Shown here one piece after another: positions 12,568 through 33,310 of a DNA stretch of 34,849 nucleotides. Below the pieces are notes generated by a model. That model did no database searches, was not told where the DNA came from, and was given only the letters and a program-made list of their open reading frames with translations. This stretch comes from Steroidobacteraceae bacterium (GTDB lineage Bacteria; Pseudomonadota; Gammaproteobacteria; Steroidobacterales; Steroidobacteraceae). The stretch covers positions 1-34,849 of the forward strand of contig JBARBX010000783.1 of NCBI GenBank assembly GCA_049793535.1. The letters run 5' to 3'. The position numbers and the translations under genes were made by a program. Within the stretch, counting starts at the first letter, position 1. Every line of letters starts with the position of its first letter.

Positions 12568-14490
12568 CTACCGCAGGGCGCACCTCACGCCGGCGATCCG
12601 TACGACTTTCATCGGCAATCCCATGTCCCTGTGGTTGGGCACATCGAGGCTCCACAGAGTGGATCCCGCCGTCGGGCACTCGCATTCGGTAAAACCGAGC
12701 TTGGCATAATGATCTTCGACCAGGCGATTGCGCTCGGTCGGTCGATAGGTGCCGACGATCCGAGCGATGCCGAACTTGCGCGCATGGCTCACCAATTCCT
12801 GTAAGACGGCCTGCTCGACCCGCCGTCCGAGGACGCGGCAGCTCATGAGCCATGTATCGACCAGCCAATCGTCGGCATTGCGCCGGCAGATCACGACACT
12901 GATCATGCCATTGTCGCCGAACGTGTCGACCAGGCGGACCTGAAGCGTGAAGCAATTCGGATCAGCCTCCATTTCACCCACCTGTACTTCGCTGTAGCGG
13001 CGGGTGGTCAGGTTGAACTGGTTGGATTTGTTGATGAGCTGCGCAATTCGCGCCCGGCCGATCTCGTCGAAAGGCCGGAACGTGATCGTCATGCCAAGCG
13101 TCTCGAGGTATGCGTCGAGATCCCCCGCGGCGCGCTGCAACGCCACGCGGCGCGCATTGTCCCGGTAGAAATCGGCGCGCTGCTGGTCCTCCGGAGAAAA
13201 AGCGACCGCCTCGAAGTACCCCGCGGCCAGCAGGGTGCGCACATAAAACGCGGGGTCCTCGGTCAGCTCCGGCACCGCCACTTCGGGCAACATATCGCGG
13301 ACCAAGCGCCGTTCCGCCGGATTGTCATCGAGGAATACCATCGATTCAAGTCCAAGCGACAATTCGTCGGCGATCGTCCGAATGTTGGTTGCCTTGTCGT
13401 GCCAATTTGCCTGGAATACCGCCACGTGATTCTCGTGCAACAGCATCTCAGGATGGTTGCGAAACGGCAGGCGAGCGATCTCATCGTTGTTCTTGGACGA
13501 TACCGCGAGCACTATGCCTCGTTTGCGGAGCGCCAACGCCGCACTCTGCACATCCAGGAACGCTTCACCCTGCGGATCTCCCTGACCGAGCACGATGCCT
13601 TCGAGCCCGTCGTCGCCGATAACGCCGCCCCAAAGCGTGTTATCCAAGTCCAGCACGAGGCAGCGTCGACTCTTGCCGCGCAACGCCGCGATCAGGCGGC
13701 AGGCAAGATCCGCGTAGATCGGCAGGTAGGCGTTGGCGAACGGAATCTTGCCCATATTCCACAAGCCGGGATCATGCCACGACGATAGCCCGACGGTTTC
13801 GGCCAGACCGGCAACATCGAGCAGCAGGTCCGCCTTGCCCGCAAGATCGGTCGACAACTTGCGATTGAAGAGATCGATGACATTGCGGCGCGTGCCGGGA
13901 AGGGCCAGGTCGAGACTGCCGAAGCTGGTTTCGACCGGTCTGGCCAAAGTTTGATAGATGCAGCTCGCACCACAATTTTTTCGCAGCGCGTCGCGTACCG
14001 TCCGCAATTCGTCCAGCGCCCCGTCCACCGCGCCGTCAACGGCGCTCGCAACTCCCAGCGGGACGTCGAACGCAAATGCGCGGTAGTCGAGCGCGACCAG
14101 CACAGCGTCGGGGCGCGCCCGATTGATGGTGGAGTCGGCGTCGAGTGCTTCTTGCATGAACTGGCCGTAGTTCGCCTCTACGCACTCGAGCGCAATGCCA
14201 TGCCGCGCCGCGGTCGCAGTCAATGCCGGCACCATGAAATGCGAGGTGGCATTGCTGATGATGCCGAGCCGAAACGGCGTCAGTGGCCTTAGGCCCTCGG
14301 GACGGCCTCGCACCGCCTCGATCGCGTTTGCAAGGCAGACGAGTTTGTTCTCGTCAAGCGCGAATGATGCCAGGGCGCGTACTTCGCGGCCCAGGTCTTC
14401 CGTAGCTACGCGCAGCGCCCGGCAACGCTTGGTGAAGTCTTCCGGGGGCCGAGGCAGCCACTCGAGGTCCGCGTACAACGACTCACTCAC
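12568..14490 (-). CDS. FkbH-like HAD-IIIC family enzyme (N-terminal FkbH domain + HAD phosphatase core + C-terminal GNAT-like domain)
   Basis: Track ORF 12568..14502 starts at a TTG. I prefer the GTG at 14490, which has GAGG 6 nt upstream. HAD motif I reads CLVLDLDNTLWGGVIGDDGLEG. The C-terminal region has DTFGDNGMISVVIC and LMSCRVLGRRVE, typical of the FkbH-like family as I recall it. Confidence 0.85.
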   Translation of the reverse strand: MSESLYADLEWLPRPPEDFTKRCRALRVATEDLGREVRALASFALDENKLVCLANAIEAVRGRPEGLRPLTPFRLGIISNATSHFMVPALTATAARHGIALECVEANYGQFMQEALDADSTINRARPDAVLVALDYRAFAFDVPLGVASAVDGAVDGALDELRTVRDALRKNCGASCIYQTLARPVETSFGSLDLALPGTRRNVIDLFNRKLSTDLAGKADLLLDVAGLAETVGLSSWHDPGLWNMGKIPFANAYLPIYADLACRLIAALRGKSRRCLVLDLDNTLWGGVIGDDGLEGIVLGQGDPQGEAFLDVQSAALALRKRGIVLAVSSKNNDEIARLPFRNHPEMLLHENHVAVFQANWHDKATNIRTIADELSLGLESMVFLDDNPAERRLVRDMLPEVAVPELTEDPAFYVRTLLAAGYFEAVAFSPEDQQRADFYRDNARRVALQRAAGDLDAYLETLGMTITFRPFDEIGRARIAQLINKSNQFNLTTRRYSEVQVGEMEADPNCFTLQVRLVDTFGDNGMISVVICRRNADDWLVDTWLMSCRVLGRRVEQAVLQELVSHARKFGIARIVGTYRPTERNRLVEDHYAKLGFTECECPTAGSTLWSLDVPNHRDMGLPMKVVRIAGVRCALR

Positions 14491-14498
14491 GGCGAACC

Positions 14499-14780
14499 TC
14501 AAGGCTGGAGTACGGCCCCAGAGGGCTGTTTGTGCTTGGTGAGCGCGACGAGATCGCCGACGTTCTTGAGCCGGCTCATCTCCACCGCGGAGAACTTGAC
14601 GCCGAACGCCTTTTGCACCGACAGAATCAACCGTATGTGCGTCAGACTGTCCCAGCCGTTGACGTCATTGGCCGTCAGCTCGGGTTTTAGCACCAGATCA
14701 TCGTCATCAAAGACTTCGCGAAATACCGAGGTCAAACGAGTGAGGATTGGGTCTTCCATGTATGTCTCCGTGGTATTCAT
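14499..14780 (-). CDS. Acyl carrier protein (phosphopantetheine attachment site GWDSL)
   Basis: The sequence ...LTANDVNGWDSLTHIRLILSVQKAFGVKF... has the DSL Ser motif in a small acidic protein. An alternative and perhaps better start is the ATG at 14759 (MEDPIL...), preceded by GGAG. The stop is 8 nt upstream of the preferred FkbH-like GTG (14490); it would overlap the gene only if the TTG at 14502 is the true start. Confidence 0.85.
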   Translation of the reverse strand: MNTTETYMEDPILTRLTSVFREVFDDDDLVLKPELTANDVNGWDSLTHIRLILSVQKAFGVKFSAVEMSRLKNVGDLVALTKHKQPSGAVLQP

Positions 14781-16330: not shown

Positions 16331-17776
16331 CTAGAACGCCTTGTAAACAAATTCCGGGGCTTTGTGAAAAAAAGACCCCACTGCGAAGATCAACAGCACC
16401 CCGCTCGCCAGAACGACATTTCGCGCAATGAGGCCCGGGACTCCGGGCCGGTCGAGTCGGGGCACCATACCCGCCAGCATCCGGCCGGCCCGATCCACGA
16501 CCGGGCCGCCAACGGCAGCGCACAGTGTCGTGCCGAGGAGCGCGAACAGCAGCCCGCCGGCGCCGAGCCGGCGCGCCAGCAGCCCGAGTTGATCCATGTT
16601 GACCCAAAGAGCGGTGACCGCGAGGGCGAAGAAGGCGAACATCAGCCCACGCGCCAAGCTGGCGTACACAAATGATTCTCCGATTGCTCTGTACTGCTTC
16701 TTGCCGAAACGATTGGTCATGAAGACCTGCCAGAGCTTGTTGAGGCTGGCGCCCGCGCCCATGACCAACCCGTAGATCACGAAGACACCGGTCGAGCCAT
16801 GCCACACACCCATCACGAAGAATGTGACGAAGAACGCGATCACTCCCAGATAGGGCAGCCACACCGGCGCCGCCACCCGGCCGGCCAGAAACGCCATCAG
16901 CGGATTGAACAGGTAGGTCTTGAACCATTGCGAAAGGGTCATGTGCCAGCGGGACCAGAACTCGAATATGTTGCGCGCGGAAAACGGCCGGTCGAAATTC
17001 TCCGGCAGCTCCTGACCGAGCAGCCATCCAACGCCGATGACGATGTCCATATAGCCGGAGAAGTTGAAGTACAGGTAAAAGGTGTAGGCGACGGCACTCG
17101 CCGCATACTGCGCGGCAAAGCGCCAGCCGACCATCGGCGTCGTCTCACCGAGCACGGCGGCGGATAAATTGGCAAATAGATAGTTGAAGACCGCCGACAC
17201 GACGGCGAGTTTGATGAAGCCCTTGATTATCCGATGCGCCGCTCTGAACGCGATGGCGTCGTCGACCTTGCGGTCGAGCAGCCCGAGGCCGGCCAAGTAT
17301 TCGTTGGAGCGCTGTATCGGGCCCGACACGAAGCAGAGAAAATTGCAGGTGAAATTGAAAAACCCAAGCGGATCGAGCCGCGCCTCCTCTTCACCGCCCG
17401 CGCTGTCGATCACCATCTGCAGGACGCGGAAGAGAATGTATGAAAGCCCGATCTGCAGGTACAGGAACGGCAGTTCGATCCGAGCGGGCAGGAAAGTGTA
17501 GCGCTTGAGCACCGCGAATACCGCGACGATCAAGACGATCGTCCACCCCAGGAGTCCGGGTTTGCGCCAGCGCGCCACCCAGCGCGTGGCGGCGTATCCC
17601 AACACGAGAAACCCCAGCAATGGAGCCAGTTGCCCGGCCGATTGAACGAAACTCGCGAGGAACAGCAAATTCGCAAGCAACAACAACCCTTGCCGGAAAA
17701 GTGGTGCGCGCCAAGCGTTGAACGCCAGCACGGTTGCGGTTACAAAGCCGAGATACAGGGTCGATGTGAAATCCAC
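16331..17776 (-). CDS. MBOAT-family membrane-bound O-acyltransferase (DltB/AlgI-like)
   Basis: Polytopic membrane protein with MBOAT signatures FWSRWHMTLSQWFKTYLFNPL and FFVMGVWHG (conserved His). GTG start 5 nt after the GH16 stop. Confidence 0.9.
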   Translation of the reverse strand: MDFTSTLYLGFVTATVLAFNAWRAPLFRQGLLLLANLLFLASFVQSAGQLAPLLGFLVLGYAATRWVARWRKPGLLGWTIVLIVAVFAVLKRYTFLPARIELPFLYLQIGLSYILFRVLQMVIDSAGGEEEARLDPLGFFNFTCNFLCFVSGPIQRSNEYLAGLGLLDRKVDDAIAFRAAHRIIKGFIKLAVVSAVFNYLFANLSAAVLGETTPMVGWRFAAQYAASAVAYTFYLYFNFSGYMDIVIGVGWLLGQELPENFDRPFSARNIFEFWSRWHMTLSQWFKTYLFNPLMAFLAGRVAAPVWLPYLGVIAFFVTFFVMGVWHGSTGVFVIYGLVMGAGASLNKLWQVFMTNRFGKKQYRAIGESFVYASLARGLMFAFFALAVTALWVNMDQLGLLARRLGAGGLLFALLGTTLCAAVGGPVVDRAGRMLAGMVPRLDRPGVPGLIARNVVLASGVLLIFAVGSFFHKAPEFVYKAF

Positions 17777-17781
17777 GGCGC

Positions 17782-18747
17782 CTATACCTTGAGACGGGCG
17801 ACCTTGACTGAACTGATGATCATGTCGGCCGGGTAGTCGTGCTGAATGAGATCCGAACCGGCGGACAGCCGCTCCGGCGAAACGCCATCAATGGGCTGCA
17901 CATTCAATTCGTTGTACGGCCATTTCCCGCCGACCGCCAAATTGACGATCAGATACATGTTTTGCTGAAGAGAGGGCGGCGTTGGCTGTTGCCACAAAAT
18001 TCTTCCGTCGAGCAAACCGGTCATCGACTGCGGTGTCCAGTCCAGGCCATACTCGTGAAAGTCCGCGGAGGGATTGATGTTCAGATCCATCCATTGGCTG
18101 AAATGTCCGCCGGCTCCTTTGGGCACCATAGCGCCGAAATGTATCTGTTCCTGATGCTTACCCCAGGGCATGGCTTCGAAAATGTCGATCTCCGGCGGCC
18201 ACTGATGCGATTCGGGCAGCAGCCACAGGCCCGGCCACGAGCCGCGCGCCGATGGCAATTTGGCGGCCACGCGTATGCCCCCGAAAGTAAATGAGGCTCG
18301 CGACAGCAACATGCCGGAGCCGAAACGCCGGTATCCACCGACACGATAAGCCGACTGTTGTGCCGCGCTCAACAGCGATGCCTTGATGTGCAGGCCGTCG
18401 GGTTGAATTGAAAATGGGTCGTAACGCAAGTCCACCGGAACCGGGGTGCCCTTGATCCTATCGATGAGGGGGGTGACGTAGGTTTGGCACTCGGCATTGC
18501 CTCCGAGCCAGTTGGTGCCGTCTCCGTAGCTGTCCGGCCATTTAGTGCCCGGCCAGAAGGTGAAGGCCCATCGACTGGTATCGGGATAGAGTTTTTTGCC
18601 GCCGCCGGGCATTGTAATTTGTACACCGCGGAAATCATCTTCGATGATGTGGGTGTCACTCTGCGCGAGAGCTCTGTCGCCGCGGGCAGACAGCAGCAAG
18701 GCGCCCGCCCCCGTTGCCGTGTTAACGAGAAAATCACGCCGATTCAT
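17782..18747 (-). CDS. Tat-exported glycoside hydrolase family 16 (beta-glycanase, ExoK-like position in an EPS locus)
   Basis: Tat signal MNRRDFLVNTATGAGALLLSA. The GH16 catalytic motif E-I-D-I-F-E occurs in WPGLWLLPESHQWPPEIDIFEAM. Confidence 0.85.
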   Translation of the reverse strand: MNRRDFLVNTATGAGALLLSARGDRALAQSDTHIIEDDFRGVQITMPGGGKKLYPDTSRWAFTFWPGTKWPDSYGDGTNWLGGNAECQTYVTPLIDRIKGTPVPVDLRYDPFSIQPDGLHIKASLLSAAQQSAYRVGGYRRFGSGMLLSRASFTFGGIRVAAKLPSARGSWPGLWLLPESHQWPPEIDIFEAMPWGKHQEQIHFGAMVPKGAGGHFSQWMDLNINPSADFHEYGLDWTPQSMTGLLDGRILWQQPTPPSLQQNMYLIVNLAVGGKWPYNELNVQPIDGVSPERLSAGSDLIQHDYPADMIISSVKVARLKV

Positions 18748-22166: not shown

Positions 22167-23212
22167 GCGAACGCCCGACGTCTGAGGTCGCTTTTGACTC
22201 CTTCCAGGCGGCCCAGAGTATCGTCCAGCGAGCGCGCGTGAGCGTGATCCGAACTCAGAAAGCCCTTGCTGTACCTCAGCTTGTCCAGATGCGCCGCGGC
22301 GACGGCGCTCATTTGCCGGCTTGACCCCAAGCCGGTTGCCGCCAGCCGTTTCAAGATGGCTTCAAGTCCCATGCTGGCGTTCCAGCGCCATCGTTGATCG
22401 ATACGGCGGCCGACTTCCTCAAAGCCGGACATCAGCAGATCCACATCGTCGAAATGCATTCGAATGCCCTGCGCCACCAGACCGGGCGAAGGGTAGCCAG
22501 GCGCATTGGAGTGTACGGTCCACTTGAGCAGCGTGTTGCGTAGGTACTCGATTCCACTGCTGGCGGGCAGGCAAATGGGACTGTACGAAACGTTCAGCGA
22601 CGATGCCCAGTCGACCCATTTGAAGGGCGATACCTCCCGGGAAAGAGCGACGGGAATCCAGGGCACCCGGAATGCGTCCGCGACGATGGCCGCATGCATG
22701 GATTCCGCAATGACCTTCTCAGCGGCGGCAATCCGTCTGACCACCGACCTCGAATCGCCGCACGGATGAACGAACTCGATTCCGAGGCTTTCGCAAATCG
22801 TCTCCCAATTGCCGTAGCGGACGCTCTTCCAATGAGGAATGAAAATGGTGCCTCGCCGGTTAAGTCCGCTGAACTCTGGCAGCGTGGCCAGCAGAATGGC
22901 CGGGTCCGTCATGGCGAAGCGCTCGTCGAGATGCAATGCGTGAGCGGTCAGGGGCCCACGCACGCCATAGATTCGCCAGCGAACAGAGTCGGTCGTTATG
23001 TCGCGAGGAACGGACGTATAACCGACTCCGGTGCCGAAAACGATCGTCACCCGGGCCGGAGGTAGATTCCTGTCGAGAATCGTGCCAATGCCGACGAACA
23101 GGACATCGTCCTTCGCATCGCCGCACACGTCGCCGAGCAGTTCGGGCCATAGCCATCGATTCAGCTCGTCGCCGAAATTTCCGCCGACCTGCTTGAGAAG
23201 ATGAATCTTCAC
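22163..23212 (-). CDS. Polysaccharide pyruvyl transferase (ExoV/CsaB-like)
   Basis: Track ORF 22163..23587, trimmed to the GTG at 23212, which overlaps the upstream TGA (GTGA). This gives an N-terminus VKIHLLKQVGGNFGDELNRWLWPELL, matching the GN(F/x)GDxLN motif of PS_pyruv_trans and ExoV proteins. Confidence 0.75.
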   Translation of the reverse strand: MKIHLLKQVGGNFGDELNRWLWPELLGDVCGDAKDDVLFVGIGTILDRNLPPARVTIVFGTGVGYTSVPRDITTDSVRWRIYGVRGPLTAHALHLDERFAMTDPAILLATLPEFSGLNRRGTIFIPHWKSVRYGNWETICESLGIEFVHPCGDSRSVVRRIAAAEKVIAESMHAAIVADAFRVPWIPVALSREVSPFKWVDWASSLNVSYSPICLPASSGIEYLRNTLLKWTVHSNAPGYPSPGLVAQGIRMHFDDVDLLMSGFEEVGRRIDQRWRWNASMGLEAILKRLAATGLGSSRQMSAVAAAHLDKLRYSKGFLSSDHAHARSLDDTLGRLEGVKSDLRRRAFA

Positions 23213-24510
23213 GGCCTGATCATATAGGTCACACTCGCCATCGCGAGCGTATCGTTGAACTGAAACCGGGCTTGATTGGACTCGCGCTGTTCGTACGTGA
23301 CCGAGAGTTTGAAGGTAAGTGAAGACGTCGGGGTGTAGGCGACGCGCGCCTGCTCCGTCGTCAACCGGTCGTGGCGCGAGAAGTACGTGAGCGCGCTCGG
23401 GCTGGAACTGATGTAGTCGTGATTCTCCCGTGAAACGCCCGCGGAAAGAGTCAAGGTGTCCGCGGCAATCCACACCGGCGCGATCGCGACCCCATTCGAG
23501 ACGAAATAATCCGACTCCGCCTCCACGTATGCCGTGAGCTGGCGCCAACCTGTCAATACCCATTGCAAATTGTCGGTCGGCTGCCACTGCAGCGCCGCCT
23601 TCCAGATGTCTCCCGAGAAGGTCGCGAATCTCGACTCCGGATAGTCGCGCTTCAAATAGCCGGCGCTGGCGTCGAGCTCCGTCGCGGCGCTAAAGACATA
23701 TTTGACCAGGATGCGCTCCGTATCCTCTCGGTAGTCCGAATTGAAGGGCGTTCCGTTCAATACGAAGTTCTGCGGGAAGGTTGCATCCGTGTAGCGATAG
23801 TCGAACGTCACCGTGTTCTGGGACGCGGCCGCAAGCTCGATTCCGGCGTTTCCGGCCTTGCTGTGAAAGTCGTACAATTGCTCGGGGACCGCGGTCTGCG
23901 ACGTATCCGCGCCGATCACTCCGCCGTAAATCGCCCAATGCGGTCCGACCTGGTAACGAATATTGCCGAAGTAATCTTCCCTTTCGACCACATCGCGTGC
24001 GTAGTAGCCCGTATCGGCGAAATTGGCGAGCCCCCGGAAATAGCTCACACCCACCTGCCCCGACCAAAAGGATGCCAGCCGCCAATCCCACTCGAGGTTG
24101 CCCTTACCCGAGACGTTGTCCAACGAGTCGTTATGGACGAAGCGATTGTCGTCGGCGCGGAAATCGATGCCAAACGTCTGGCTGTCCGAAAACCAACGGC
24201 CATCGCCGCCCAAGGTGGTGGAATTGAAGCCATCCTGGCGTCTCGCCATGGGCCCGGCCACGGTCGTGACGTCGAAGTAGGACGGCAGCCTGTAAAGGTT
24301 GTCGTCGTAGTTGAATTGGTCGGCAATGAACAAGTCGAGATTGTTCGGGGAATCTCTGGTAATCGGCGAATCCGTGGTAAGAGTCGGATTCGCGGGCACC
24401 GGGGGATTCGGGGCAAGCGGCGGATTTGTCAGAAGAGGCGGATCGCCGAATGCCGACGATCCCATTCCCATCGACAGGCCAACCGCCAGTACGTGCAGGC
24501 ATTTACGCAT
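23209..24510 (-). CDS. Outer-membrane beta-barrel protein of the EPS locus (EpsL-like, inferred)
   Basis: Track ORF 23209..24636, trimmed to the ATG at 24510 (signal peptide MRKCLHVLAVGLSMGMGSSAFG). A Pro/Asn-rich linker is followed by about 400 aa of alternating hydrophobic/polar strands rich in Tyr, Gly, Asp and Asn, typical of OM barrels. The family assignment is inferred. Confidence 0.6.
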   Translation of the reverse strand: MRKCLHVLAVGLSMGMGSSAFGDPPLLTNPPLAPNPPVPANPTLTTDSPITRDSPNNLDLFIADQFNYDDNLYRLPSYFDVTTVAGPMARRQDGFNSTTLGGDGRWFSDSQTFGIDFRADDNRFVHNDSLDNVSGKGNLEWDWRLASFWSGQVGVSYFRGLANFADTGYYARDVVEREDYFGNIRYQVGPHWAIYGGVIGADTSQTAVPEQLYDFHSKAGNAGIELAAASQNTVTFDYRYTDATFPQNFVLNGTPFNSDYREDTERILVKYVFSAATELDASAGYLKRDYPESRFATFSGDIWKAALQWQPTDNLQWVLTGWRQLTAYVEAESDYFVSNGVAIAPVWIAADTLTLSAGVSRENHDYISSSPSALTYFSRHDRLTTEQARVAYTPTSSLTFKLSVTYEQRESNQARFQFNDTLAMASVTYMIRP

Positions 24511-25795
24511 GTGCACTCCGACGCTTGGCCGCCGCGACATCGATGTCGAGCAGGCCCGTGCCCGGCGTTGTGGGAAGCATCCGTACGGCGGCCCACTGCC
24601 GACGTACATCGAATATCGCCTGCCGAAGCCGTTCACCCCTGACGCTCCATCGGAATTGCGTACTGCCGAGCGAGAAGGCGCGCTCTTGCATCCGATTCAA
24701 CTCGTCGAATCGATCGATGTGGGAAACTATGTCATCGATCAATCCCGCCTGGCTGCTGTTGGTCAGCATCGCACTCTGAAGTTCATCCGACAGACCCGCG
24801 ACGGCCTGCGATACCGTCGCGATGGGCACGCGCCCGAAGATGTAGTCCAGCAATTTGAGTTTGAATCCGCCTCCAATGGATTCGTGAACGATCGCAATGC
24901 GCGCACGGCTGAGCAGAGGCGCACAATCGGCCACGAAGCCGTGAAAACGCGTGGCCCGGCAACGCGTCCGCAGCGTGGCGAGGAGCGCCTGCGGCATTTC
25001 CCCGACAATGTCCAATTCGATTCCGTGCTCCTGGAAAATCGGATCGGCGACCCTTACGAAGCGGGCGATATTTTCCTGCTTCACGATCCATTGGAACGAG
25101 CCCATGATGACCACGCGCCGAGGCATTGCCGGCGTGATGCACCGTGGGCCTGCCACCGGCCCGGTGTACCCGGGCGTGAGCGACAATATATGGTCGTGCG
25201 TCATACCCGCGCCCAGCGACCGGCGGTCTTCATCGGTGATTGCGGTCAGTAAATCCACATTTCGAACCATCCGCCGCTCCAGCGTGCGCACCTTGTTTGC
25301 GTTGCGCCGGAGCAGCCATCTCTTGAGGACCGCTGCGCGCGATTCGCGGGCCATCGAGTCCCACAGGAGTTCCTCATGATTGTGCGCTACATGCACGAGA
25401 ACCGTCGGATGGGCCGGCCTTTCACTCCGATACGCCAGGCATCGGTCAAGTGCCCAGCCTGTTGCATAACCGTCGAGCACCACTGCATCCCACTGCTCGC
25501 ACAATTGCGTCTCGAGGACTGCGCGGTAGGTATTGGTCGCATCGATGGCGGCCGCGATCGGCCAGCGGCTGAATGCGGCGCGAATCTTGCTGCGCCGTCT
25601 GCCGGGTACCGCCAGCCAGTCGACGCCGGCGGCCGATTCCGGCACGCTGCTTGCGTCTCCGACGCCGACGAAACGCACGAATGTTCCCGCCTGAGCCAGA
25701 GATTGCGCAAGATTGGCCGAATACACTTTCGCACCCTCGTTTGACGGAAATGGCACGTAGCGGGAGATCCAAAGGCATCGCATCCGATTGCTCAT
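24503..25795 (-). CDS. GT-B fold glycosyltransferase (GT4-like)
   Basis: Track ORF 24503..26257, trimmed to the ATG at 25795 (MSNRMRCLWISRYVPFPSNEGAKVYS...). This ATG shares 1 nt with the upstream TGA (TGATG). The C-terminal region has HESIGGGFKLKLLDY, an E-x7-E-like motif. Confidence 0.8.
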   Translation of the reverse strand: MSNRMRCLWISRYVPFPSNEGAKVYSANLAQSLAQAGTFVRFVGVGDASSVPESAAGVDWLAVPGRRRSKIRAAFSRWPIAAAIDATNTYRAVLETQLCEQWDAVVLDGYATGWALDRCLAYRSERPAHPTVLVHVAHNHEELLWDSMARESRAAVLKRWLLRRNANKVRTLERRMVRNVDLLTAITDEDRRSLGAGMTHDHILSLTPGYTGPVAGPRCITPAMPRRVVIMGSFQWIVKQENIARFVRVADPIFQEHGIELDIVGEMPQALLATLRTRCRATRFHGFVADCAPLLSRARIAIVHESIGGGFKLKLLDYIFGRVPIATVSQAVAGLSDELQSAMLTNSSQAGLIDDIVSHIDRFDELNRMQERAFSLGSTQFRWSVRGERLRQAIFDVRRQWAAVRMLPTTPGTGLLDIDVAAAKRRSAHA

Positions 25796-26949
25796 CAGGG
25801 TGATCTCCGAATAGATGCGGCAGGACTCCATGTCTGGTAGCGGTCTCCGCGCAACGACCGCCATACACCCAGTCCGGTGCCTGCCAATGCGGCAATGGTC
25901 CCTGCGAATTGTGCGAAAGGCCGGATCGTCGACACGCAGCCCAGATACAGCGCCGCCGCAATGCAAAGGGCGAGCGCAGCGGCGAGCGGCGCATGCCCCG
26001 CGACGATCAGTGCGCCCTGGAACGCCAGGGCGGCGATCGCCAGCAGGTAAATCGTGAACCAGCGAATCAATTTGTGCGAAATATATTTGTAGAGCGTGAT
26101 TCCATCGAGCCTGCGGAGCTGCGGCCAAAGCAGCCGGTGCACGTTGAACGCCTGGCAGGCTATGCGTATTTTGCGCCTGAACTCTTCGCGTCCCGACACC
26201 ACTGATTCTTCGTAGGCCAGCGCGTCGCTGGCCTGTATGACCCGGAAACCGCTGCACATTATCTTCAGCGACACATACAAGTCGTCGATGATGTGGTCCG
26301 GCGGCGGCTGGTGCAGCGCGCGCCTGATCGCGAACACCGACCCGTCCGCCCCGATGGTGGAACCGCTTTCCATCTCGAGCTTCTTGATCGTCTCTTCAAA
26401 CCGCCAGTAGGCCGACCCGGATGACGCGGTCGCCGATGCCCTGCCGTTCGTATAGACCAGACTGCCGCAGACACAGCCGACATCCGGGTCGATAAAGTAC
26501 CGGCGAAAATCCCGCACGCAATCCATATCCATCAAGACATTGGCGTCGCTGAAGATCAATATCAGCGCCTGCGCCTTGGCCGCCAAAACATTCATGCCGT
26601 AAGTCTTTCCAAGGCGACGCGTCTCGACGTACAGGCTGATTTGCGCTCCGTACTCCCGCAGGATGTCGGCGGTGCGGTCGGTCGCTCCGTCTACATAGAC
26701 GAGTATCTCGAGACCCGGCTCGCGCGCGCGCAGCGCCAAGAGATTTTCGACCTTGCGCGCGATGGCGCGTTCTTCGTTGTACGCGCACACGCAAATTGCG
26801 CAATTCAATGGAGCGCTAGCCCCCTCCCCGGTGCGGCGCCTGACGGGGTGCAGCACCTGGAGGACGATAAGCGACCACGGATAGGTGATGAACGGGTGGC
26901 AAGCCGCGAGCACGCACAGAATTCCCAGGACAAACAGCGCGGTGCTCAT
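25795..26949 (-). CDS. Membrane-associated GT2 family glycosyltransferase
   Basis: Track ORF 25795..27183, trimmed to the ATG at 26949 (ATGA overlap with the upstream stop). An N-terminal TM helix is followed by ICVCAYNEERAI...VYVDGATDRT...IFSDANV (DxD-like), then C-terminal TM helices. Confidence 0.85.
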   Translation of the reverse strand: MSTALFVLGILCVLAACHPFITYPWSLIVLQVLHPVRRRTGEGASAPLNCAICVCAYNEERAIARKVENLLALRAREPGLEILVYVDGATDRTADILREYGAQISLYVETRRLGKTYGMNVLAAKAQALILIFSDANVLMDMDCVRDFRRYFIDPDVGCVCGSLVYTNGRASATASSGSAYWRFEETIKKLEMESGSTIGADGSVFAIRRALHQPPPDHIIDDLYVSLKIMCSGFRVIQASDALAYEESVVSGREEFRRKIRIACQAFNVHRLLWPQLRRLDGITLYKYISHKLIRWFTIYLLAIAALAFQGALIVAGHAPLAAALALCIAAALYLGCVSTIRPFAQFAGTIAALAGTGLGVWRSLRGDRYQTWSPAASIRRSP

Positions 26950-28268
26950 GCCCGGCCTCCTAGATTCAGTGCCGGCAGATCGGCGGCGACAGTCGTCGTG
27001 GGGGTCCGCAGCGACGATTTTCCGAGCCACTGGCCGCGTCTCTCCCGCTCGGGCCCCGGTTTCCACAGCAGCAAGCTCAGCGCCAGCCCATGGGCAAATG
27101 GCGTGTAGATTCCGTTTAGAAGGTAGGTGATACCGATTGCGAGCGTCAGAATTCGCGGTGCCGGCGAGTAAAATAGGCAGCAAAACAGAAATCCAAAATA
27201 CGCGACCGCCCCGACCAGGCCGAATTCGAGCACGATCTTGAACAGCGCCATCTCGTCCGCGCCATAGTGGGCGCGCGAGGCATAGTTGCTAAAGGCGCCG
27301 GCCCCATATCCGAACAACGCCCGCCAGGGATCGCCCCACAGGAATCGATCGAAGAGATAGAACCCGCCTACAAAGCGCGAGAAGCCGCTCGAATGACTCG
27401 AGCCGAACTCGGCCAGCCGCGACAGTAAACGGACCGGGTGCACGTACTCGTGCAACAGAATGATCGCCACCGATCCCAGCATTCCGGCGAGCAGAAGCCC
27501 CCAGCGACGCCGAGCCACCAGGCACCAGGGCAGGCAAACGGCGAGCACCACGATGCCGGTACCGGAATACGATGCGATCAGCGCCAGCCCGAATATGGCG
27601 AGACGGGTTATCCGGCCCCGGGTGCACAATTCAGCAAGTATGGCGACGGCAAGGAACTGACTGAAAAAGGAGGGCTCCAGGAAAAAGACGCCGTTGGCCC
27701 GGTATTCATGCGAGCCGTACTCCATCGCCGCCTGATGATTGAAGTGCTGGACAATGAACGTGTTGGGGACGAAATTCTCGATGGGGAACAGATAGCGCGG
27801 ACTGACGAAGAATTGCAGGCAGAATTGCGCAATGCCCAACAAGGCAAAGATCGTGGCCACTCCCAGAAAGAACCCGATAATGCGGTCGCCGTCGTCGCTG
27901 TGCGGCACGGTCACCGCATACGGCAGATGCACGGCGACCAGCAGCAGCAACGACAAGGGAGAGAATGCTTCCGGCTGCAGGAGTTGAATCAGACCCAGAG
28001 ATCCAACGAGCATGAAATAGAGGGTCAATCGCCGTGGCTCGATGCGCATGCCGCCGCCGACCGTGCCCGCGATGACGGCTGCCAGCAACACGAAAATGGA
28101 GATACCGATTCCCTGTGCGCCGAAGGGCGGAATCGCGAAATTCGACAGAAAAGTGGCGCCGATCAGCGGCGTGACCAGGAGGGCGAAACGCAGCCCGTTC
28201 GTCGCCGGGACTGCGCCGCCCGCGGCATCCGCGGTTGCGCGCGTGGGCGCTGCAATCGCGCTAGCCAT
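26946..28268 (-). CDS. Wzy-like polysaccharide polymerase / O-antigen-ligase-family membrane protein
   Basis: 440 aa with about 10-12 TM helices and a larger loop in the C-terminal half. No other enzyme motif. Sits between the chain-length/kinase genes and the GTs, and overlaps the upstream gene by 8 nt. Confidence 0.7.
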   Translation of the reverse strand: MASAIAAPTRATADAAGGAVPATNGLRFALLVTPLIGATFLSNFAIPPFGAQGIGISIFVLLAAVIAGTVGGGMRIEPRRLTLYFMLVGSLGLIQLLQPEAFSPLSLLLLVAVHLPYAVTVPHSDDGDRIIGFFLGVATIFALLGIAQFCLQFFVSPRYLFPIENFVPNTFIVQHFNHQAAMEYGSHEYRANGVFFLEPSFFSQFLAVAILAELCTRGRITRLAIFGLALIASYSGTGIVVLAVCLPWCLVARRRWGLLLAGMLGSVAIILLHEYVHPVRLLSRLAEFGSSHSSGFSRFVGGFYLFDRFLWGDPWRALFGYGAGAFSNYASRAHYGADEMALFKIVLEFGLVGAVAYFGFLFCCLFYSPAPRILTLAIGITYLLNGIYTPFAHGLALSLLLWKPGPERERRGQWLGKSSLRTPTTTVAADLPALNLGGRA

Positions 28269-29139
28269 CGATCACCGCGCCGAGCAATGAGACCTCCGCC
28301 GACTCGAGCTGCGCTTTGGCGCGCAATACATCGTCCAGCCGCACACTGTGGCGCTTGATCGCCAGAATTGCCCCGCGCGCGCGCGCTGCGATTAGCTGCG
28401 CGTCGGCGCACTCGCGGATTGGCGGTGTATCGACGATCACAACATCGTATTTGACGGGCGCGGTCTCCATCAGGTAGCCGAATGAAACACGCCCGAGCAG
28501 TTCCTGCGGGTTGGGAGGCGGCTCACCGGCGCACAGCACGGACAAACAACCGATACCTGGAACCATCGAGAGCGCATTTTCGAGGTCTTCGCCCTTGATG
28601 CAGTCCACCAGGCCGTACTGCGGCTCGATTCCGAAGAGCAAGTGCTGCAACGGCGCGCGGAGGTTCGCGTCGATGAGCAGTGTCCGCTCACCGAGCTGCG
28701 CAAATGTCACCGCCAGATTTGCAGCGAGCGCGCTGCAGCCGTTTCCCGGCCTCGGTTCGATTACGGCCAGAACTCGATTGCTGCGGCCGAACCAGCGCAG
28801 CATCAGATCGCTGCGCAAGGTCCGCAGTTCCTCTGCGCGCTTGCTGTAAGGTTGATACGCAGTGACGACCTCCGGACTCAAGTCGGAATCGCCCGGCTTC
28901 AGCACGGGGAATTCTATTTGCCGAGCGAGCGCCCGCCGGACGTCCCGCTCGCTGGCCAGCCCCAAACGCGACGCGACCTCGCCAAAGCGCTCGCCACAAT
29001 CCCGTTGCGCCGCCAAAATGACCTTGATGTCTTGTTCGGTCAGCGTTCCGTCGTTCTGCAACAGTTCGCCAAGCCGGGTGTCGATCAAAGTGGGAGCCAT
29101 CGCTCCTCGCTGCCGCGAGATTTTTCTGGTTACCGTCAC
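28261..29139 (-). CDS. BY-kinase-like (MinD/ParA-fold) protein with degenerate Walker A and an N-terminal MshEN/T2SSE_N-like domain
   Basis: Core: VLAVIEPRPGNGCSALAANLA (Walker A position, Lys replaced by Cys), LLIDANLRAP (Walker A'), YDVVIVDTPP (Walker B). The N-terminus has RLGELLQNDGTLTEQDIKVILAAQ-RDCGE-RFGEVASRLGLASERDVRRALARQ. There is no C-terminal Tyr cluster. Start is the GTG at 29139 or the ATG at 29100. Confidence 0.75.
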   Translation of the reverse strand: MTVTRKISRQRGAMAPTLIDTRLGELLQNDGTLTEQDIKVILAAQRDCGERFGEVASRLGLASERDVRRALARQIEFPVLKPGDSDLSPEVVTAYQPYSKRAEELRTLRSDLMLRWFGRSNRVLAVIEPRPGNGCSALAANLAVTFAQLGERTLLIDANLRAPLQHLLFGIEPQYGLVDCIKGEDLENALSMVPGIGCLSVLCAGEPPPNPQELLGRVSFGYLMETAPVKYDVVIVDTPPIRECADAQLIAARARGAILAIKRHSVRLDDVLRAKAQLESAEVSLLGAVIDG

Positions 29140-30611
29140 TAGAGTTTCTCCACGATTTTCGGTTCCATCCGCGGTCTTTTCCCCCTGGGTCTAAACCAGC
29201 CGCGACGCCGGCGGTAGCGCCGCAGGGAGATGTTCACGACCGGCAGTTCGGCCAACACGGCGATACCGGCTCCTTCCAGCAGGTCGGTGCGCGTGTGAAT
29301 GCGCTGATCGAACCGTTCCCTGATCAAACTTGCACCGACGGCGAGCATTGACCCCAGAATGACCCCCAAAGCAAGATTGAGAAGCAGCCGCGGCGATGAG
29401 GGCTTCATCGGGGGGAACGCGTAGTTCAAAATGGCGGTGTTGGTGTTTTTGAGCCGGCTCTCCAGCTTCGTCTCGCCGCCGCGCTGCATGGCTGAGTCGT
29501 ACGCGGTACGAGCGCTCTCTTCATCCCGCTTGAGTACTGAATACTCGTCCTGGTTGTGCTGGAGGTCGAGGATGCGCTTGCGCTGTTGGTCCATCGCGCG
29601 CTGCAAATCCGCGACGTTCTGCTTTGCCACCCGCGCTTCCCTCGACACCGCCGCATTGGCGTTGGCGACTTCGGCCGCCACTTTGCCGCGCAGCGACTCG
29701 AGTTCGGCCTGCGCGCTGATATACTGCGGGTGATTGTGGTCATAGCGCTGCGACACTTCGGCGAACTTTGCGGTAGAGCGCGCGAGCTCGGTCTTTAGGT
29801 TCTGCAGCAACGGGTTTTGCTGAACATTTACCGATTCGTCGGCGAGACCCTTGGCGGCCGCATCGTTCATCTGCTGCTGCCGAGTCTCGGCATCGTACAT
29901 GGCGGCCTGCGCATCGACGAAGCGATTCGAGAGCTCGGTCAACCGTGCTGTCTCGACGTCGATCTTGTTGCTGTTGTTGTTGTCGTTGTCAGTACCGATG
30001 AGGCCATGTTGCGCCTGATAGGCCGATAGCTTTCCCTGGGCGGTTTCCAACGTCGCTCTAAGGTCGTTGACTTGCTGAGCGAACCAACCCGCCTGGCGGC
30101 GCGCGGGGTCGGTTTTGAGTTCGAGGCTGGCCTCCAGGTACCCTTCCGAAAATGCGTTCGTGATATCCGCGGCCGCCTGCGGAGACTTGCTGGTGTACTC
30201 GACGAAGATGACGTCGCTGTCGCGCGACGGCTTTACGGTCAGCGATTTCAGTATCTCGTCCGCCGCCCAATCGCGTATGGACCCGACCCCGCCGGTCTTG
30301 TCGTTAAATTTCTCGACGATCTGCGGATCGGCGGTCAATTTCATGCGATCGACCACCTTCAGCGCGACATTATGGCTGTCGATGACGTCGACCTGGGTCG
30401 CCACGTAGTTTGCCTCCTGCGCCGACTGCATGACGCCGTCCTGTGCCAGCGGATCAATGCCATGCGCATCGACCACTACCGCCGATTCGCCCGTGTACTT
30501 CTTCGGCAACAGCAGGCTCGCAGCGAGCGCGACCGCCACGACGGACACGATGATCCACATGGACATCGCCCTGTGTACCCAGAGAATCCGCATTAACTGT
30601 GATAAGCGCAT
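29139..30611 (-). CDS. Polysaccharide co-polymerase / chain-length determinant (Wzz domain, PCP-2 type, EpsF-like)
   Basis: N-terminal TM helix followed by LLPKKYTGESAVVVD (Wzz motif region). A long coiled-coil periplasmic domain, a second TM helix (LLLNLALGVILGSMLAVGASLI) and a basic tail (RRYRRRRGWFRPRGKRPR). Confidence 0.85.
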   Translation of the reverse strand: MRLSQLMRILWVHRAMSMWIIVSVVAVALAASLLLPKKYTGESAVVVDAHGIDPLAQDGVMQSAQEANYVATQVDVIDSHNVALKVVDRMKLTADPQIVEKFNDKTGGVGSIRDWAADEILKSLTVKPSRDSDVIFVEYTSKSPQAAADITNAFSEGYLEASLELKTDPARRQAGWFAQQVNDLRATLETAQGKLSAYQAQHGLIGTDNDNNNSNKIDVETARLTELSNRFVDAQAAMYDAETRQQQMNDAAAKGLADESVNVQQNPLLQNLKTELARSTAKFAEVSQRYDHNHPQYISAQAELESLRGKVAAEVANANAAVSREARVAKQNVADLQRAMDQQRKRILDLQHNQDEYSVLKRDEESARTAYDSAMQRGGETKLESRLKNTNTAILNYAFPPMKPSSPRLLLNLALGVILGSMLAVGASLIRERFDQRIHTRTDLLEGAGIAVLAELPVVNISLRRYRRRRGWFRPRGKRPRMEPKIVEKL

Positions 30612-30628: not shown

Positions 30629-31447
30629 TCAGAAAATGCTCGCCTTGATCAACAGCACGTCGTTCGGCTGCAATACGTCATCCTTCTCGACCGAGTACTT
30701 GTGCTCCTTGCCCGCCGCATCCACGCGCTTGACCACCGCACCGCGCTGGGTGCCGCGCGGCATGAGGCCGCCGCCGATGGAAATGGCCTGAGAAATGGTT
30801 GTATCGCGCATCAGCCGGTATTGCCCCGGATGCTGCACCTGCCCGTAGATGTAGAACTGCGGTGCGTGAGGCACGAATATGGTGTCGCCGTCCTGCACGC
30901 TATAGTTCACCGCGGGGTCGCCGTCGAACAGCTTCTGTAGATCGATGACAACGCGCTTTCCGTCGGCTCGAACCAGCGTTCCCTCGTCCGCAGCCGTGTC
31001 GTTGAGCACCCCGCCGGCCATCGCCAGCAAGTCCAGCACTTTTTTCGAGGCGTCGAGCGGATACTGTCCGGGCTTCGCGACCTGGCCCATGACGGACACC
31101 TTCTGGCTCTGAAACTCCTCGACCAGCACCGATACCTCCGGCTGCTTGACGAAGCCGCCTTCGATCAAACGCCGCGCCAGGAGCAGTTCGGTCTCGCGGG
31201 TCGACAATCCGGCGACGGACACCATGCCGACCAGGGGAAAGGTGATATTGCCGGTTTGACTGACGCGCGCATCGACGCTCAATTCGTCGTGGTCGAACAC
31301 GGCGACCCTGATCAGGTCGCCGGCGCCGAGCCGGTAGTCCTGCGGTTTGGCGACCGCTTGCGTCATCCACATCAGCGCCGCCACCGACAGAAGGGATACT
31401 TGGAAGAACCGGCCGCTTCGAAGGCTCGTCCGCCGGTCAGTACGCAT
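30629..31447 (-). CDS. Periplasmic/outer-membrane polysaccharide export protein (Wza/OPX family, short EpsE-like form)
   Basis: Track ORF 30629..31486, trimmed to the ATG at 31447. Signal peptide. Poly_export motif YRLGAGDLIRVAVFDHDELS...GNITFPLVGMVSVAGLSTRETE, followed by an SLBB-like repeat. At about 272 aa it is too short to include a Wza-type C-terminal OM helix. Confidence 0.85.
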   Translation of the reverse strand: MRTDRRTSLRSGRFFQVSLLSVAALMWMTQAVAKPQDYRLGAGDLIRVAVFDHDELSVDARVSQTGNITFPLVGMVSVAGLSTRETELLLARRLIEGGFVKQPEVSVLVEEFQSQKVSVMGQVAKPGQYPLDASKKVLDLLAMAGGVLNDTAADEGTLVRADGKRVVIDLQKLFDGDPAVNYSVQDGDTIFVPHAPQFYIYGQVQHPGQYRLMRDTTISQAISIGGGLMPRGTQRGAVVKRVDAAGKEHKYSVEKDDVLQPNDVLLIKASIF

Positions 31448-32897
31448 CGCGATCGCTCCAGAGCAGACCGATCGTCCGCAGGACAATCATCAGGTCGAGT
31501 CGTAGCGACCAGTTCTTCAGGTATTCCAAGTCGAACTCGATTCGCTTTGTCATGGTGCGCAAATCATCCCCGCCGCGGTAGCCGTTGACCTGCGCCCAAC
31601 CGGTGATGCCGGGTTTAACCTTGTGGCGGAACATGTAGCTCGGAATCAGGCTGCGGTAGTGCTCGTTCACCGCAATGGCGTGGGGGCGCGGGCCGACCAA
31701 GCTCATGCTTCCCTCGAGGACATTGAACAATTGCGGCAATTCATCCAATGAAGTCCGTCGAATGAAGGCGCCGAACGGCGTCACCCGATCGTCGTCGCGC
31801 GTGACCTGCGTATAGGTCGTTGCACCATCCTCGGTCACCGTCATGGACCGGAATTTGTAGACCTGAATGGCGCGGCCGTCGAGGCCGTAACGAAGTTGCT
31901 TGAATATTGCGGGGCCCTGGGAGGTGCGCTTGACGCCGACGGCGACGGCGACCAGCACCGGCCATACGCACAGCAGGATCAGGAGGGACAATATGATGTC
32001 GCTGACACGCTTTGCGACCGATCGCACGCCGAAGAAAGGCGACTCATTGACCGCGAACACCGGCATGCCATGCAGTACATCGACACGCACCTGGATATCG
32101 TTGAGAGAATACAAATCCGGAACGAAGTAGACCGACGCCACCGTGTCGCGCAATCCACCCAATAGCTCGGCAAGTTTGGGGTGCGGCGACATCGGCAGGG
32201 TGATGTAGACCACATTAACCCCGTGTTCCCGCACGAAAGTCGGCGCATCGCATATCCGGCCCAGTGGCAATTCCCCACAGCGCGGGAGACCGCCCGCCGG
32301 CCGGTCATCAAAGAATCCCAGCAAATTGACGCGCATCAGGGGCTGTTCCAAGATCTTCCCGCCCAACAAAAGACCTTGTTTGCCCGCGCCGATGATGACA
32401 GCACGGCGCGGCGCATGCCTGACACCCACATACAGCAAAATCCGGCGCACGCCGATGGTGCCGCTCCACAGTACGAGCGGCGTGAAGACAAACCAAGCCA
32501 TCAATGCGCCATCTCTCGGTGAGATGCGCAAGCCGGTCAGATACAGCACCACAGTCACACAGGCGCCGACGGCGACCCATCGCACGACCATGTCCAACAG
32601 CCAGCGCAGCTCCTGGTGTATTTCCGCCGGGTCGTGATCCACGCGAGAGTCGCCCAACAATTCCGCGGTGCCGGCAAACGCCAGCACCGCAATCAAAAAA
32701 TACGTGCCGCTAAACGAGCGCTTCCCCAACCACAAGCAGAACACGAGAAACGCCACCGTGGTTACGGGATAAAACAGCGCCTTGACCATGAATACGGCGG
32801 CGGAATCAAACGAAGTCACGTCCTGCGACTGGGGCTGCGATCGTGCATGAACAATGTCAGCGACCAGCGACTCATCGATCATCAGTTCACCACTCAT
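31437..32897 (-). CDS. Polyprenyl-phosphate hexose-1-phosphate transferase (priming glycosyltransferase, WcaJ/EpsB-like)
   Basis: Track ORF 31437..33284, trimmed to the ATG at 32897, just after the upstream stop at 32927. It has 4-5 N-terminal TM helices and a Rossmann-like middle domain (VIIGAGKQG). The C-terminal bacterial sugar-transferase domain reads SLVGPRPHA...KPGITGWAQVNGYRG. Confidence 0.9.
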   Translation of the reverse strand: MSGELMIDESLVADIVHARSQPQSQDVTSFDSAAVFMVKALFYPVTTVAFLVFCLWLGKRSFSGTYFLIAVLAFAGTAELLGDSRVDHDPAEIHQELRWLLDMVVRWVAVGACVTVVLYLTGLRISPRDGALMAWFVFTPLVLWSGTIGVRRILLYVGVRHAPRRAVIIGAGKQGLLLGGKILEQPLMRVNLLGFFDDRPAGGLPRCGELPLGRICDAPTFVREHGVNVVYITLPMSPHPKLAELLGGLRDTVASVYFVPDLYSLNDIQVRVDVLHGMPVFAVNESPFFGVRSVAKRVSDIILSLLILLCVWPVLVAVAVGVKRTSQGPAIFKQLRYGLDGRAIQVYKFRSMTVTEDGATTYTQVTRDDDRVTPFGAFIRRTSLDELPQLFNVLEGSMSLVGPRPHAIAVNEHYRSLIPSYMFRHKVKPGITGWAQVNGYRGGDDLRTMTKRIEFDLEYLKNWSLRLDLMIVLRTIGLLWSDRDAY

Positions 32898-32926
32898 GAC
32901 ATCCGGATGGCAACGAACACTCAAGG

Positions 32927-33310
32927 TCAGCCATAGGGCGTAATCCGCCTTTGCGGCAACGACTTGTGTTTGTGCCGAAGCTGCAGAACGATCAATCCAA
33001 GGGCCGCCAGCATGATCAACCAACCATTGAAGGTCCCTGTATTGGCGGCCTGTCGCTGCACAAACGCTGAAGTGGCCCTCATCCTTTTGACCACGCGGCC
33101 CTTGATGTTCGAGAAATTGGCGCGCGGTCCCGGATAGCTGCCTCGCTCGCCTGATTTCGACAGCGTTCGCGCGGGAGGTTCCATCGTCGGCAGAGTTATG
33201 GGGTCGATGGCGAGAGATGCCTCCGCCTGTTGCGTTTGCGCATCGGAGCTGCTCGCATTCGTGTACGCGATCGCGCACAGGCATACCAACAACAATTTAC
33301 AACGTCTCAT
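32927..33310 (-). CDS. Small exported protein with C-terminal TM helix plus basic anchor; first gene of the EPS operon
   Basis: ATG at 33310 (the track start at 33325 is a TTG). Signal peptide MRRCKLLLVCLCAIAYTNA, then an 80-aa polar low-complexity region, then WLIMLAALGLIVLQL-RHKHK. No family recognised. Support for coding comes from its position 30 nt upstream of the priming GT and its signal/anchor architecture. Confidence 0.45.
   Translation of the reverse strand: MRRCKLLLVCLCAIAYTNASSSDAQTQQAEASLAIDPITLPTMEPPARTLSKSGERGSYPGPRANFSNIKGRVVKRMRATSAFVQRQAANTGTFNGWLIMLAALGLIVLQLRHKHKSLPQRRITPYG

Follow-up and report, generated by a model that had tools for sequence, protein, structure and literature searches.

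The window analyzed here is a 34,849-nucleotide (nt) stretch of DNA from a Steroidobacteraceae bacterium (assembly GCA_049793535.1, contig JBARBX010000783.1). It carries an exopolysaccharide (EPS) cluster in which the gene epsG (28261–29139, minus strand) lies directly behind epsF (29139–30611, minus strand). From its translation, a family profile and an AlphaFold2 model, EpsG is a 292-residue protein that joins an MshEN_N domain to a domain related to the bacterial tyrosine kinases (BY-kinases), the latter with the hallmarks of a pseudokinase. The EpsG family profile TIGR03029 spans residues 20–290 of the 292 and scores 321.4 bits, above its equivalog cutoff of 313.8. EpsF (490 residues) is a class 2 polysaccharide co-polymerase (PCP-2) with Wzz and GNVR domains and without a kinase domain, and it exceeds the cutoff of its own family, TIGR03017 (451.2 versus 422.75 bits). 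The same epsF-epsG order is found in two relatives.

The start codon of epsG is GTG, and base 29139 serves both as the last base of the epsF TAG and as the first base of this GTG (CTCTAGTGACGG). The two genes thus overlap by 1 nt, in agreement with the first-pass annotation of the window, which had placed epsG directly after the Wzz/PCP gene with an overlap of this size. The overlap depends on GTG being the start of epsG; gene callers place the start at an internal ATG (M14, giving the 279-residue P0001). Two observations favor GTG: a GGAG sequence sits 8 nt 5′ of it, and the N-terminal 13-residue extension (xSATKISxQR) is conserved at the protein level in homologs without the internal Met. 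Counted from the internal ATG, the motif numbering of the MshEN_N domain is exactly that of Vibrio cholerae MshE (R9, G11, G18, Q32, R38, G40, G47, and Q61). At the other end of epsG, its stop codon is overlapped by 8 nt by the ATG of the next gene (26946–28268, minus strand). With overlaps of 1 and 8 nt, epsF, epsG, and this downstream gene are translationally coupled.

The N-terminal region of EpsG contains two 24-residue motifs, motif I at residues 22–45 (RLGELLQNDGTLTEQDIKVILAAQ; 29005–29076, minus strand) and motif II at residues 51–74 (RFGEVASRLGLASERDVRRALARQ; 28918–28989, minus strand). They are joined by the five-residue spacer RDCGE (residues 46–50; 28990–29004, minus strand), which is of the same length as the spacer in V. 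cholerae MshE (PMC5013675). The first-pass annotation had picked out these two segments and their spacer as tandem motifs for binding of c-di-GMP (cyclic diguanosine monophosphate), and they lie exactly where it had put them. Both motifs fall within a match to the NCBIfam model NF053729 (“c-di-GMP_motif, MshE-related”), which covers residues 22–74 with a score of 44.6 bits against a cutoff of 38 (E 9e-12), and both are covered by the alignment to MshE. Motif I aligns to MshE residues 9–32 and lies in helices 1 and 2 of the model. The Pfam profile T2SSE_N gave no match to EpsG at E ≤ 0.01; the profile comparison proposed in the earlier annotation was thus borne out by the MshE-related model and failed with T2SSE_N.

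Comparisons with solved structures point the same way. The single EpsG N-terminal sequence matches MshE (5HTL) at E 8e-7. A profile built from 139 family members and searched against the Protein Data Bank (PDB) sequences matches the GSPII domains of PilF at E 2.3e-24 and MshE (5HTL) at E 3.3e-10 over residues 18–86. A separate model, of residues 1–93, is a four-helix bundle, and the top 11 PDB structures retrieved with it by Foldseek are all c-di-GMP-bound MshE or PilF GSPII-B, with a probability of 1.00, a root-mean-square deviation (rmsd) of 1.2–2.5 Å, and sequence identities of 31%–37%. Profile, sequence match to solved structures, and modeled fold together establish that the N terminus is homologous to MshEN_N.

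In the MshE structure, the key positions of each motif are R, L, G, L17, L21, and Q24, in addition to a Gly at the turn (PMC5013675). The corresponding residues in EpsG are R22, L23, G24, I38, L42, and Q45, with G31 at the turn, in motif I, and R51, F52, G53, V67, L71, and Q74, with G60 at the turn, in motif II. All six key positions of each motif are therefore identical or conservatively replaced, and, with the five-residue spacing, the motif positions are retained as the annotation had described. Residues F52, G53, L71, and Q74 of motif II are at least 90% conserved (alignment A1). Apart from polar residues at three central core positions (Q, T, and S), EpsG also fits the general form of the motif that was tested, two tandem copies of the 24-residue (R/K/L)hGxxhhxxGhhxxxxhxxxhxxQ placed five residues apart; work on PilF indicates that the first residue can be R, K, or L (PMC11731258). 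GSPII domains that do not bind the ligand have grossly degenerate half-motifs, in which the Gly, the Gln, or whole half-motifs are lost (PMC11731258), and degeneration of this kind is not seen in EpsG. As judged from sequence and model, the MshEN_N domain of EpsG is a predicted binding domain for the biofilm signal c-di-GMP.

The remainder of the protein (residues 87–292) has the BY-kinase (BYK) fold. Searched against PDB sequences, the family profile over residues 80–291 matches CapB (E 1.7e-59) and Wzc (E 7e-53) as well as Etk, BceF, and VpsO; Pfam gives only subthreshold ParA, AAA_31, CbiA, and BcsQ matches on EpsG. The AlphaFold2 model has a mean predicted local distance difference test score (pLDDT) of 94.2 and a predicted template modeling score (pTM) of 0.87, and its C-terminal domain superposes on the kinase domains of Wzc and Etk with an rmsd of 1.3–1.4 Å over about 203 columns. 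The oligomerization (O-) motif E-x2-R-x2-R is present on helix α2 as EELRTLR (residues 103–109; 28813–28833, minus strand); in BY-kinases this ExxRxxR motif functions in oligomerization and ring formation (PMC9800525). Walker B, VVIVDTPP, is likewise retained and fits hhhDxxP (residues 233–240; 28420–28443, minus strand).

The other catalytic elements are lost. The P-loop reads PRPGNGCSA (residues 129–137; 28729–28755, minus strand) and aligns without gaps to CapB (APGAGKSTI) and Wzc, so that Cys135 occupies the position of the Walker A Lys, with PGNGCS in place of GxxxxGK(S/T). Walker A′ is LLIDANLR (residues 154–161; 28657–28680, minus strand), in which the second Asp of the hhhDxDxR consensus is replaced by Asn at the position of N159. 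The chain ends with LLGAVIDG and the stop codon (28261–28287, minus strand), six residues beyond the Gly of the last β strand, and has no Tyr cluster: the only Tyr residues of EpsG are 95, 98, 175, 222, and 231, with none in the last 60 residues. Each of these departures, the Lys-to-Cys change in Walker A, IDANLR in Walker A′, and the Tyr-free C terminus, had been read from the sequence in the first pass, and all three hold in what proves to be a genuine BYK fold. EpsG is thus predicted from its sequence to be unable to phosphorylate, and ATPase as well as kinase activity is probably absent. Two ways in which catalysis might be rescued were considered and rejected. A shifted or “deviant Walker A” Lys does not fit a P-loop that matches CapB and Wzc with no gap, nor a family in which the upstream position varies. 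A Tyr cluster supplied in trans by the EpsF tail was likewise rejected; that tail contains a single Tyr.

To place these changes in the family, conservation was followed at two depths. In the close set, comprising the 120 closest homologs (≥64% identity), the Walker A Lys is absent from all 120 (C59, G47, S11, and A3), the Mg-binding Ser/Thr position that follows it is unconstrained (S57, N28, G20, and A12), and Walker A′ is IDANLR in 111. The P-loop has an entropy of 1.38 bits/site as compared with 0.21 bits/site for the next 24 residues, and few stretches of the kinase domain vary as much in this clade. In active BY-kinases the Walker motifs form the conserved core (PMC9800525), and the pattern in the EpsG clade is therefore the opposite of theirs.

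Searched exhaustively, a set of 1.84 billion cluster representatives yielded 616 clusters (50% identity) at E ≤ 1e-30, and at least 2,166 EpsG homologs were counted in 90% clusters. The best 150 of the 616 clusters were examined; their representatives are only 35%–50% identical to the window EpsG, and nearly all have the MshEN_N-plus-BYK-like architecture. The Lys position is occupied by R in 67, A in 25, C in 19, S in 14, T in 7, V in 6, K in 6, and G in 3 of these representatives, and the second Walker A′ Asp by D in 82 and N in 68. The two positions covary, R or K at the Lys position occurring with D in Walker A′ and A, S, C, T, or V with N. The tail beyond the last strand is 5–7 residues long in 128 of the 150 and never contains more than one Tyr, so that no representative has a Tyr cluster. 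By these counts, loss of the Tyr cluster is universal and loss of the Lys nearly so. Other elements are kept: the Walker B Asp in 133 of 150, and the three residues of the O-motif ExxRxxR in 141 (E), 148 (R), and 149 (R), or at least 94%. The best-conserved residues are the MshEN contact positions, at 87%–93% (in internal-ATG numbering, G11 in 139, Q32 in 133, F39 in 140, G40 in 135, L58 in 135, and Q61 in 140 of the 150).

The sequence comparisons suggest a stepwise decay of the active site, in which the Tyr cluster was lost everywhere, the Lys was then replaced by Arg, and finally small residues took this position along with the change of Asp to Asn. On this evidence the window EpsG belongs to the most decayed clade of the family, and the distribution of the changes argues that kinase loss in the EpsG family was selected rather than accidental. 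Five representatives of 417–539 residues (P0156, P0158, P0161, P0203, and P0227) have long low-complexity N-terminal extensions ahead of the MshEN_N domain.

The split between EpsF and EpsG can be located by reference to Wzc. A cytoplasmic segment of EpsF (QRIHTRTDLLEGAGIAVLAELPVV, residues 436–459; 29235–29306, minus strand) aligns to Wzc residues 444–473 and is the equivalent of the α1/β1 segment of Wzc. By likeness to the CapA-CapB and EpsV-EcpK pairs (PMC12004946), it is the predicted docking element for EpsG. The EpsF C terminus is an Arg/Lys-rich tail (NISLRRYRRRRGWFRPRGKRPRMEPKIVEKL; 29139–29234, minus strand), which, as judged from its position, would correspond to the Arg/Lys (RK) cluster of Wzc. 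A very basic stretch of this tail, RRYRRRRGWFRPRGKRPR, comes after the α1/β1 equivalent. The RK-cluster-like element is thus carried by the PCP partner of the split pair. The alignment of EpsG to Wzc starts at about residue 490. Both the split and the MshEN_N insertion therefore map to the RK-cluster site of Wzc and other canonical BY-kinases, just before the O-motif helix. Fused relatives of ∼750 residues have the order PCP, second transmembrane segment (TM2), α1/β1, linker, MshEN_N, and BYK-like domain, with MshEN_N between β1 and α2. Among such single-chain proteins, P0167 (749 residues), P0216 (747 residues), P0165, and P0189 carry MshEN_N between the PCP transmembrane and α1-β1 part and the BYK-like domain.

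From the domain identities, motif states, family-wide conservation, and operon structure, we infer with moderate confidence that EpsG is the cytoplasmic partner of the co-polymerase EpsF in a Wzx/Wzy-type EPS machine and acts on it as a pseudokinase scaffold gated by c-di-GMP. In the manner of CapB with CapA and of EcpK with EpsV (PMC12004946), EpsG would dock on the α1/β1 segment of the EpsF tail; it would also self-associate through its retained O-motif, thereby organizing the EpsF oligomer. With MshEN_N next to the O-motif helix, assembly or docking could be made dependent on c-di-GMP. Wzc is controlled by a cycle of phosphorylation and dephosphorylation (PMC9800525); in EpsG, the assembled (active) state would be set by c-di-GMP bound at MshEN_N in place of Tyr phosphorylation and dephosphorylation, and high c-di-GMP would provide posttranslational licensing of polymerization and export. 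A scaffold role for a BY pseudokinase has a published precedent (PMC12004946). The first-pass annotation had already suggested a pseudokinase that couples c-di-GMP sensing to the polymerization and export machinery; this suggestion came through the computational tests able to overturn it and is supported by sequence and model, the coupling itself being conjectural.

Several observations weigh against this mechanism. PslE, a fused pseudokinase PCP-2, works without cycles of assembly and disassembly (PMC13434223), which means that a switch may be dispensable. EpsG carries the MshEN_N subdomain only and not a full MshEN domain, and polar residues are found at core positions where the published consensus is L/V/I (Q at 7 and T at 11 in motif I and S at 7 in motif II). 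Binding of c-di-GMP by any EpsG is not reported in the searchable literature. In addition, about half of the family (45% of representatives) combines Arg with the Ser/Thr and an intact DxD, and these proteins might still bind nucleotide.

Some of these observations would be accommodated if EpsG were a constitutive scaffold that simply holds EpsF together, a role put forward for EcpK, HfsB, and PslE, its MshEN_N domain being a structural or interaction module that is silent to c-di-GMP or has no regulatory effect. PslE is functional with its kinase-like domains locked by disulfides, so that cycling is not required (PMC13434223), some GSPII/MshEN homologs (XpsE and PilF GSPII-A) do not bind c-di-GMP, and three hydrophobic core positions of EpsG are off the published consensus. 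The nonbinders, however, are clearly degenerate, whereas EpsG keeps all six key positions in both motifs. Moreover, the contact positions are the best-conserved residues despite overall identities of 35%–50%, which is the pattern expected from selection on a ligand site. In the MshEN table of Wang et al. (2016), the EpsG of Methylobacillus flagellatus also stands in the MshE/NfrB column, which we take to hold the predicted binders. A constitutive scaffold is for these reasons considered unlikely.

That EpsG serves as a switch driven by nucleotide but devoid of kinase chemistry is quite improbable. It would still bind ATP or ADP in its altered P-loop, like nonhydrolyzing proteins of the MinD/ParA/BcsQ type, and the nucleotide state, possibly along with c-di-GMP, would control oligomerization. 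In favor of such a role are the retention of the Asp of Walker B, of the first Asp of Walker A′, and of the glycines in the P-loop, the continued binding of MgADP by Wzc K540M as judged by PDB entry titles, weak ParA/BcsQ profile matches, and the 45% of representatives in which an Arg in place of the Lys goes with Ser/Thr and an intact DxD. In the window clade, on the other hand, the Mg-coordinating Ser/Thr position is unconstrained across the 120 close homologs, and the whole P-loop is highly variable, which argues against selection for nucleotide binding there. A nucleotide switch is likelier in the half of the family that contains Arg than in the window clade. That EpsG is an active noncanonical tyrosine kinase or ATPase acting on EpsF or on the priming transferase through substitute residues, as a review statement calling EpsG-family proteins autophosphorylating kinases might imply, is highly improbable given a Walker A position without Lys or Arg, no catalytic second Walker A′ Asp, no Tyr cluster, no phosphatase gene, and a gap-free P-loop alignment to CapB and Wzc that leaves no shifted Lys to substitute.

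For the whole MshEN_N-BYK-like (EpsG) family, it is a tentative proposal, to which we give slightly less than an even chance, that c-di-GMP occupancy replaced the phosphotyrosine cycle as the switch for PCP-2 assembly and disassembly.

The window EpsG is a new member of a known family, because the EpsG family, its MshEN_N domain, and BY pseudokinases have all been described. The EpsG of Methylobacillus (TIGR03029; Mfla_2024 of M. flagellatus KT) has the same MshEN_N/BYK-like architecture, and its locus shares with the window the placement of epsG after epsF, a WcaJ-type transferase, and, with scores in the window just under the family cutoffs, EpsE and EpsL. The Methylobacillus-type locus differs in having an exosortase (XrtB/EpsH-EpsI); exosortase and EpsI models matched none of the large open reading frames (ORFs) of the window. 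The supplement of Wang et al. (2016) lists an MshEN_N (+ ATPase) architecture for EpsG; these authors aligned Mfla_2024, and their MshEN table places it in the left-hand column together with MshE and NfrB, whereas GspE and HofB stand apart (PMC5013675). The domain also has a model of its own at NCBI. In the published alignment, motif I of Mfla_2024 runs T...H as compared with R...Q in the window EpsG, which is nearer to the MshE consensus. When the published Mfla_2024 fragment served as the query, a homology search gave two short fragments of unrelated source and nothing else.

Compared with V. cholerae MshE (5HTL) and Thermus PilF GSPII-B, EpsG shares the two 24-residue motifs, the five-residue spacer, the four-helix bundle, and the Gly, Gln, and hydrophobic contacts. 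It differs in lacking MshEN_C, in being fused to a BYK fold instead of a secretion ATPase of the type II secretion/type IV pilus (T2SS/T4P) kind, and in the Phe that replaces Leu at position 2 of motif II in 140 of the 150 family representatives. With the canonical BY-kinases (Wzc, Etk, CapB, BceF, and VpsO) it has in common the fold, strong sequence homology, the O-motif and Walker B, pairing with a PCP-2, and the position in the locus, but not the Lys of Walker A, the second Asp of Walker A′, or the Tyr cluster; a gene for a cognate phosphatase was not found either. No window ORF matched a phosphotyrosine phosphatase family, no CxGNxCRS signature occurs in the six frames, and neither phosphatase nor GGDEF genes lie within 10 kb in two relatives.

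Published BY pseudokinases include EcpK and HfsB (2025, PMC12004946) as well as PslE, for which a structure and a lack of kinase activity were described in 2026 (PMC13434223). Like EpsG, EcpK with EpsV (Myxococcus), HfsB with HfsA (Caulobacter), and PslE (Pseudomonas) combine a BYK fold devoid of catalytic residues and Tyr tail with a paired or fused PCP-2, and EpsG qualifies as a pseudokinase by the same features, its partner EpsF being a PCP-2 without a kinase domain. All Walker motifs are lost in EcpK (PMC12004946), whereas EpsG is nearer to active BY-kinases (CapB, E 1e-59) and keeps the O-motif. Unlike EpsG, none of EcpK, HfsB, and PslE has a ligand-sensing domain. The proposed role of EpsG resembles the posttranslational control of polysaccharide synthesis or export by c-di-GMP through NfrB of Escherichia coli, BcsA-PilZ, Alg44, PelD, and BcsE/BcsQ. 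NfrB also has an MshEN domain, and BcsQ is a related SIMIBI-type ATPase scaffold. The NfrB, Bcs, Alg44, and PelD sensors, however, act on synthase-dependent pathways or a glycosyltransferase, whereas that of EpsG sits on a PCP-associated module of a Wzx/Wzy pathway. No paper in the searchable literature combines MshEN with Wzc, PCP-2, or a pseudokinase, and a 2025 preprint still handles EpsG as a regulator of phosphorylation state. What may be new here is the synthesis of c-di-GMP sensing with family-wide kinase death.

The 2025 study of EcpK did not settle by what means a BY pseudokinase devoid of catalysis could drive or time PCP-2 assembly. EpsG offers a concrete and testable answer, namely a small-molecule sensor adjoining the oligomerization helix. 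If this is true, EpsG proteins would be the first ligand-gated BY pseudokinases and would provide the first direct posttranslational c-di-GMP input into a Wzx/Wzy-dependent polymerization and export complex. Control of EPS by c-di-GMP at the protein level would then extend from the synthase-dependent systems (cellulose, alginate, Pel, and NfrB) to Wzx/Wzy, and thousands of database entries named “tyrosine kinase EpsG” would be misnamed. The family has cultured hosts, among them M. flagellatus and Curvibacter AEP1.3 (WP_087496558.1).

The gene behind epsG (26946–28268, minus strand) encodes a polytopic membrane protein of 440 residues, and its counterparts in the relatives (443 and 434 residues) also stand directly 3′ of epsG. 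It found no counterpart in Pfam or NCBIfam, even with the threshold relaxed to E ≤ 5, and, though unassigned, is probably the Wzy-type polymerase of the pathway. On the other side of epsF lies epsE (30629–31486, minus strand), coding for a short outer-membrane polysaccharide export (OPX) protein of 285 residues with Poly_export and two SLBB domains and without a C-terminal outer-membrane helix. An EpsL/BBP2_2 β-barrel is encoded at 23209–24636 (minus strand). Both score just below their own NCBIfam family cutoffs (EpsE, 257.3 versus 262.65; EpsL, 215.9 versus 275); together they look like a composite OPX/β-barrel (“class 3”) translocon, not a Wza-type pore. The WcaJ-type priming transferase (31437–33284, minus strand) is listed with 615 residues, of which family models cover only 185–615, and its relatives have 482 residues; its true start codon probably lies a good way downstream of the first one in frame. 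As listed, this ORF overlaps epsE by 50 nt.

Other genes of the locus encode GT2 and GT4 glycosyltransferases, a pyruvyl transferase, and a Wzx flippase. The order priming transferase, OPX, EpsF, EpsG, unknown membrane protein, GT2, GT4, BBP2_2 ... Wzx is kept in two relatives. The nearest genomes are metagenome-assembled genomes (MAGs) of uncultured Gammaproteobacteria, with 79%–86% protein identity, and a scan for the locus with a single protein recovered only four close loci, all in uncultured Gammaproteobacteria MAGs, in addition to one weak cyanobacterial match. Neither a GGDEF/EAL gene nor a c-di-GMP riboswitch was found in the window, and a promoter and terminator scan of it gave nothing above shuffled expectation. 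A protein with an FkbH domain (HAD-IIIC), a DltB-like MBOAT protein, and a GH16 glycanase are encoded at 12568–14502, 16331–17776, and 17782–18747 (all minus strand); this set hints that the polysaccharide bears acyl groups or other decorations and is trimmed by a hydrolase of its own. Finally, in an 843-residue protein encoded at 6109–8640 (plus strand), a winged-helix DNA-binding domain of the OmpR type precedes a STAND/NB-ARC-like NTPase region; encoded upstream of the EPS cluster, this protein may be a transcriptional regulator.

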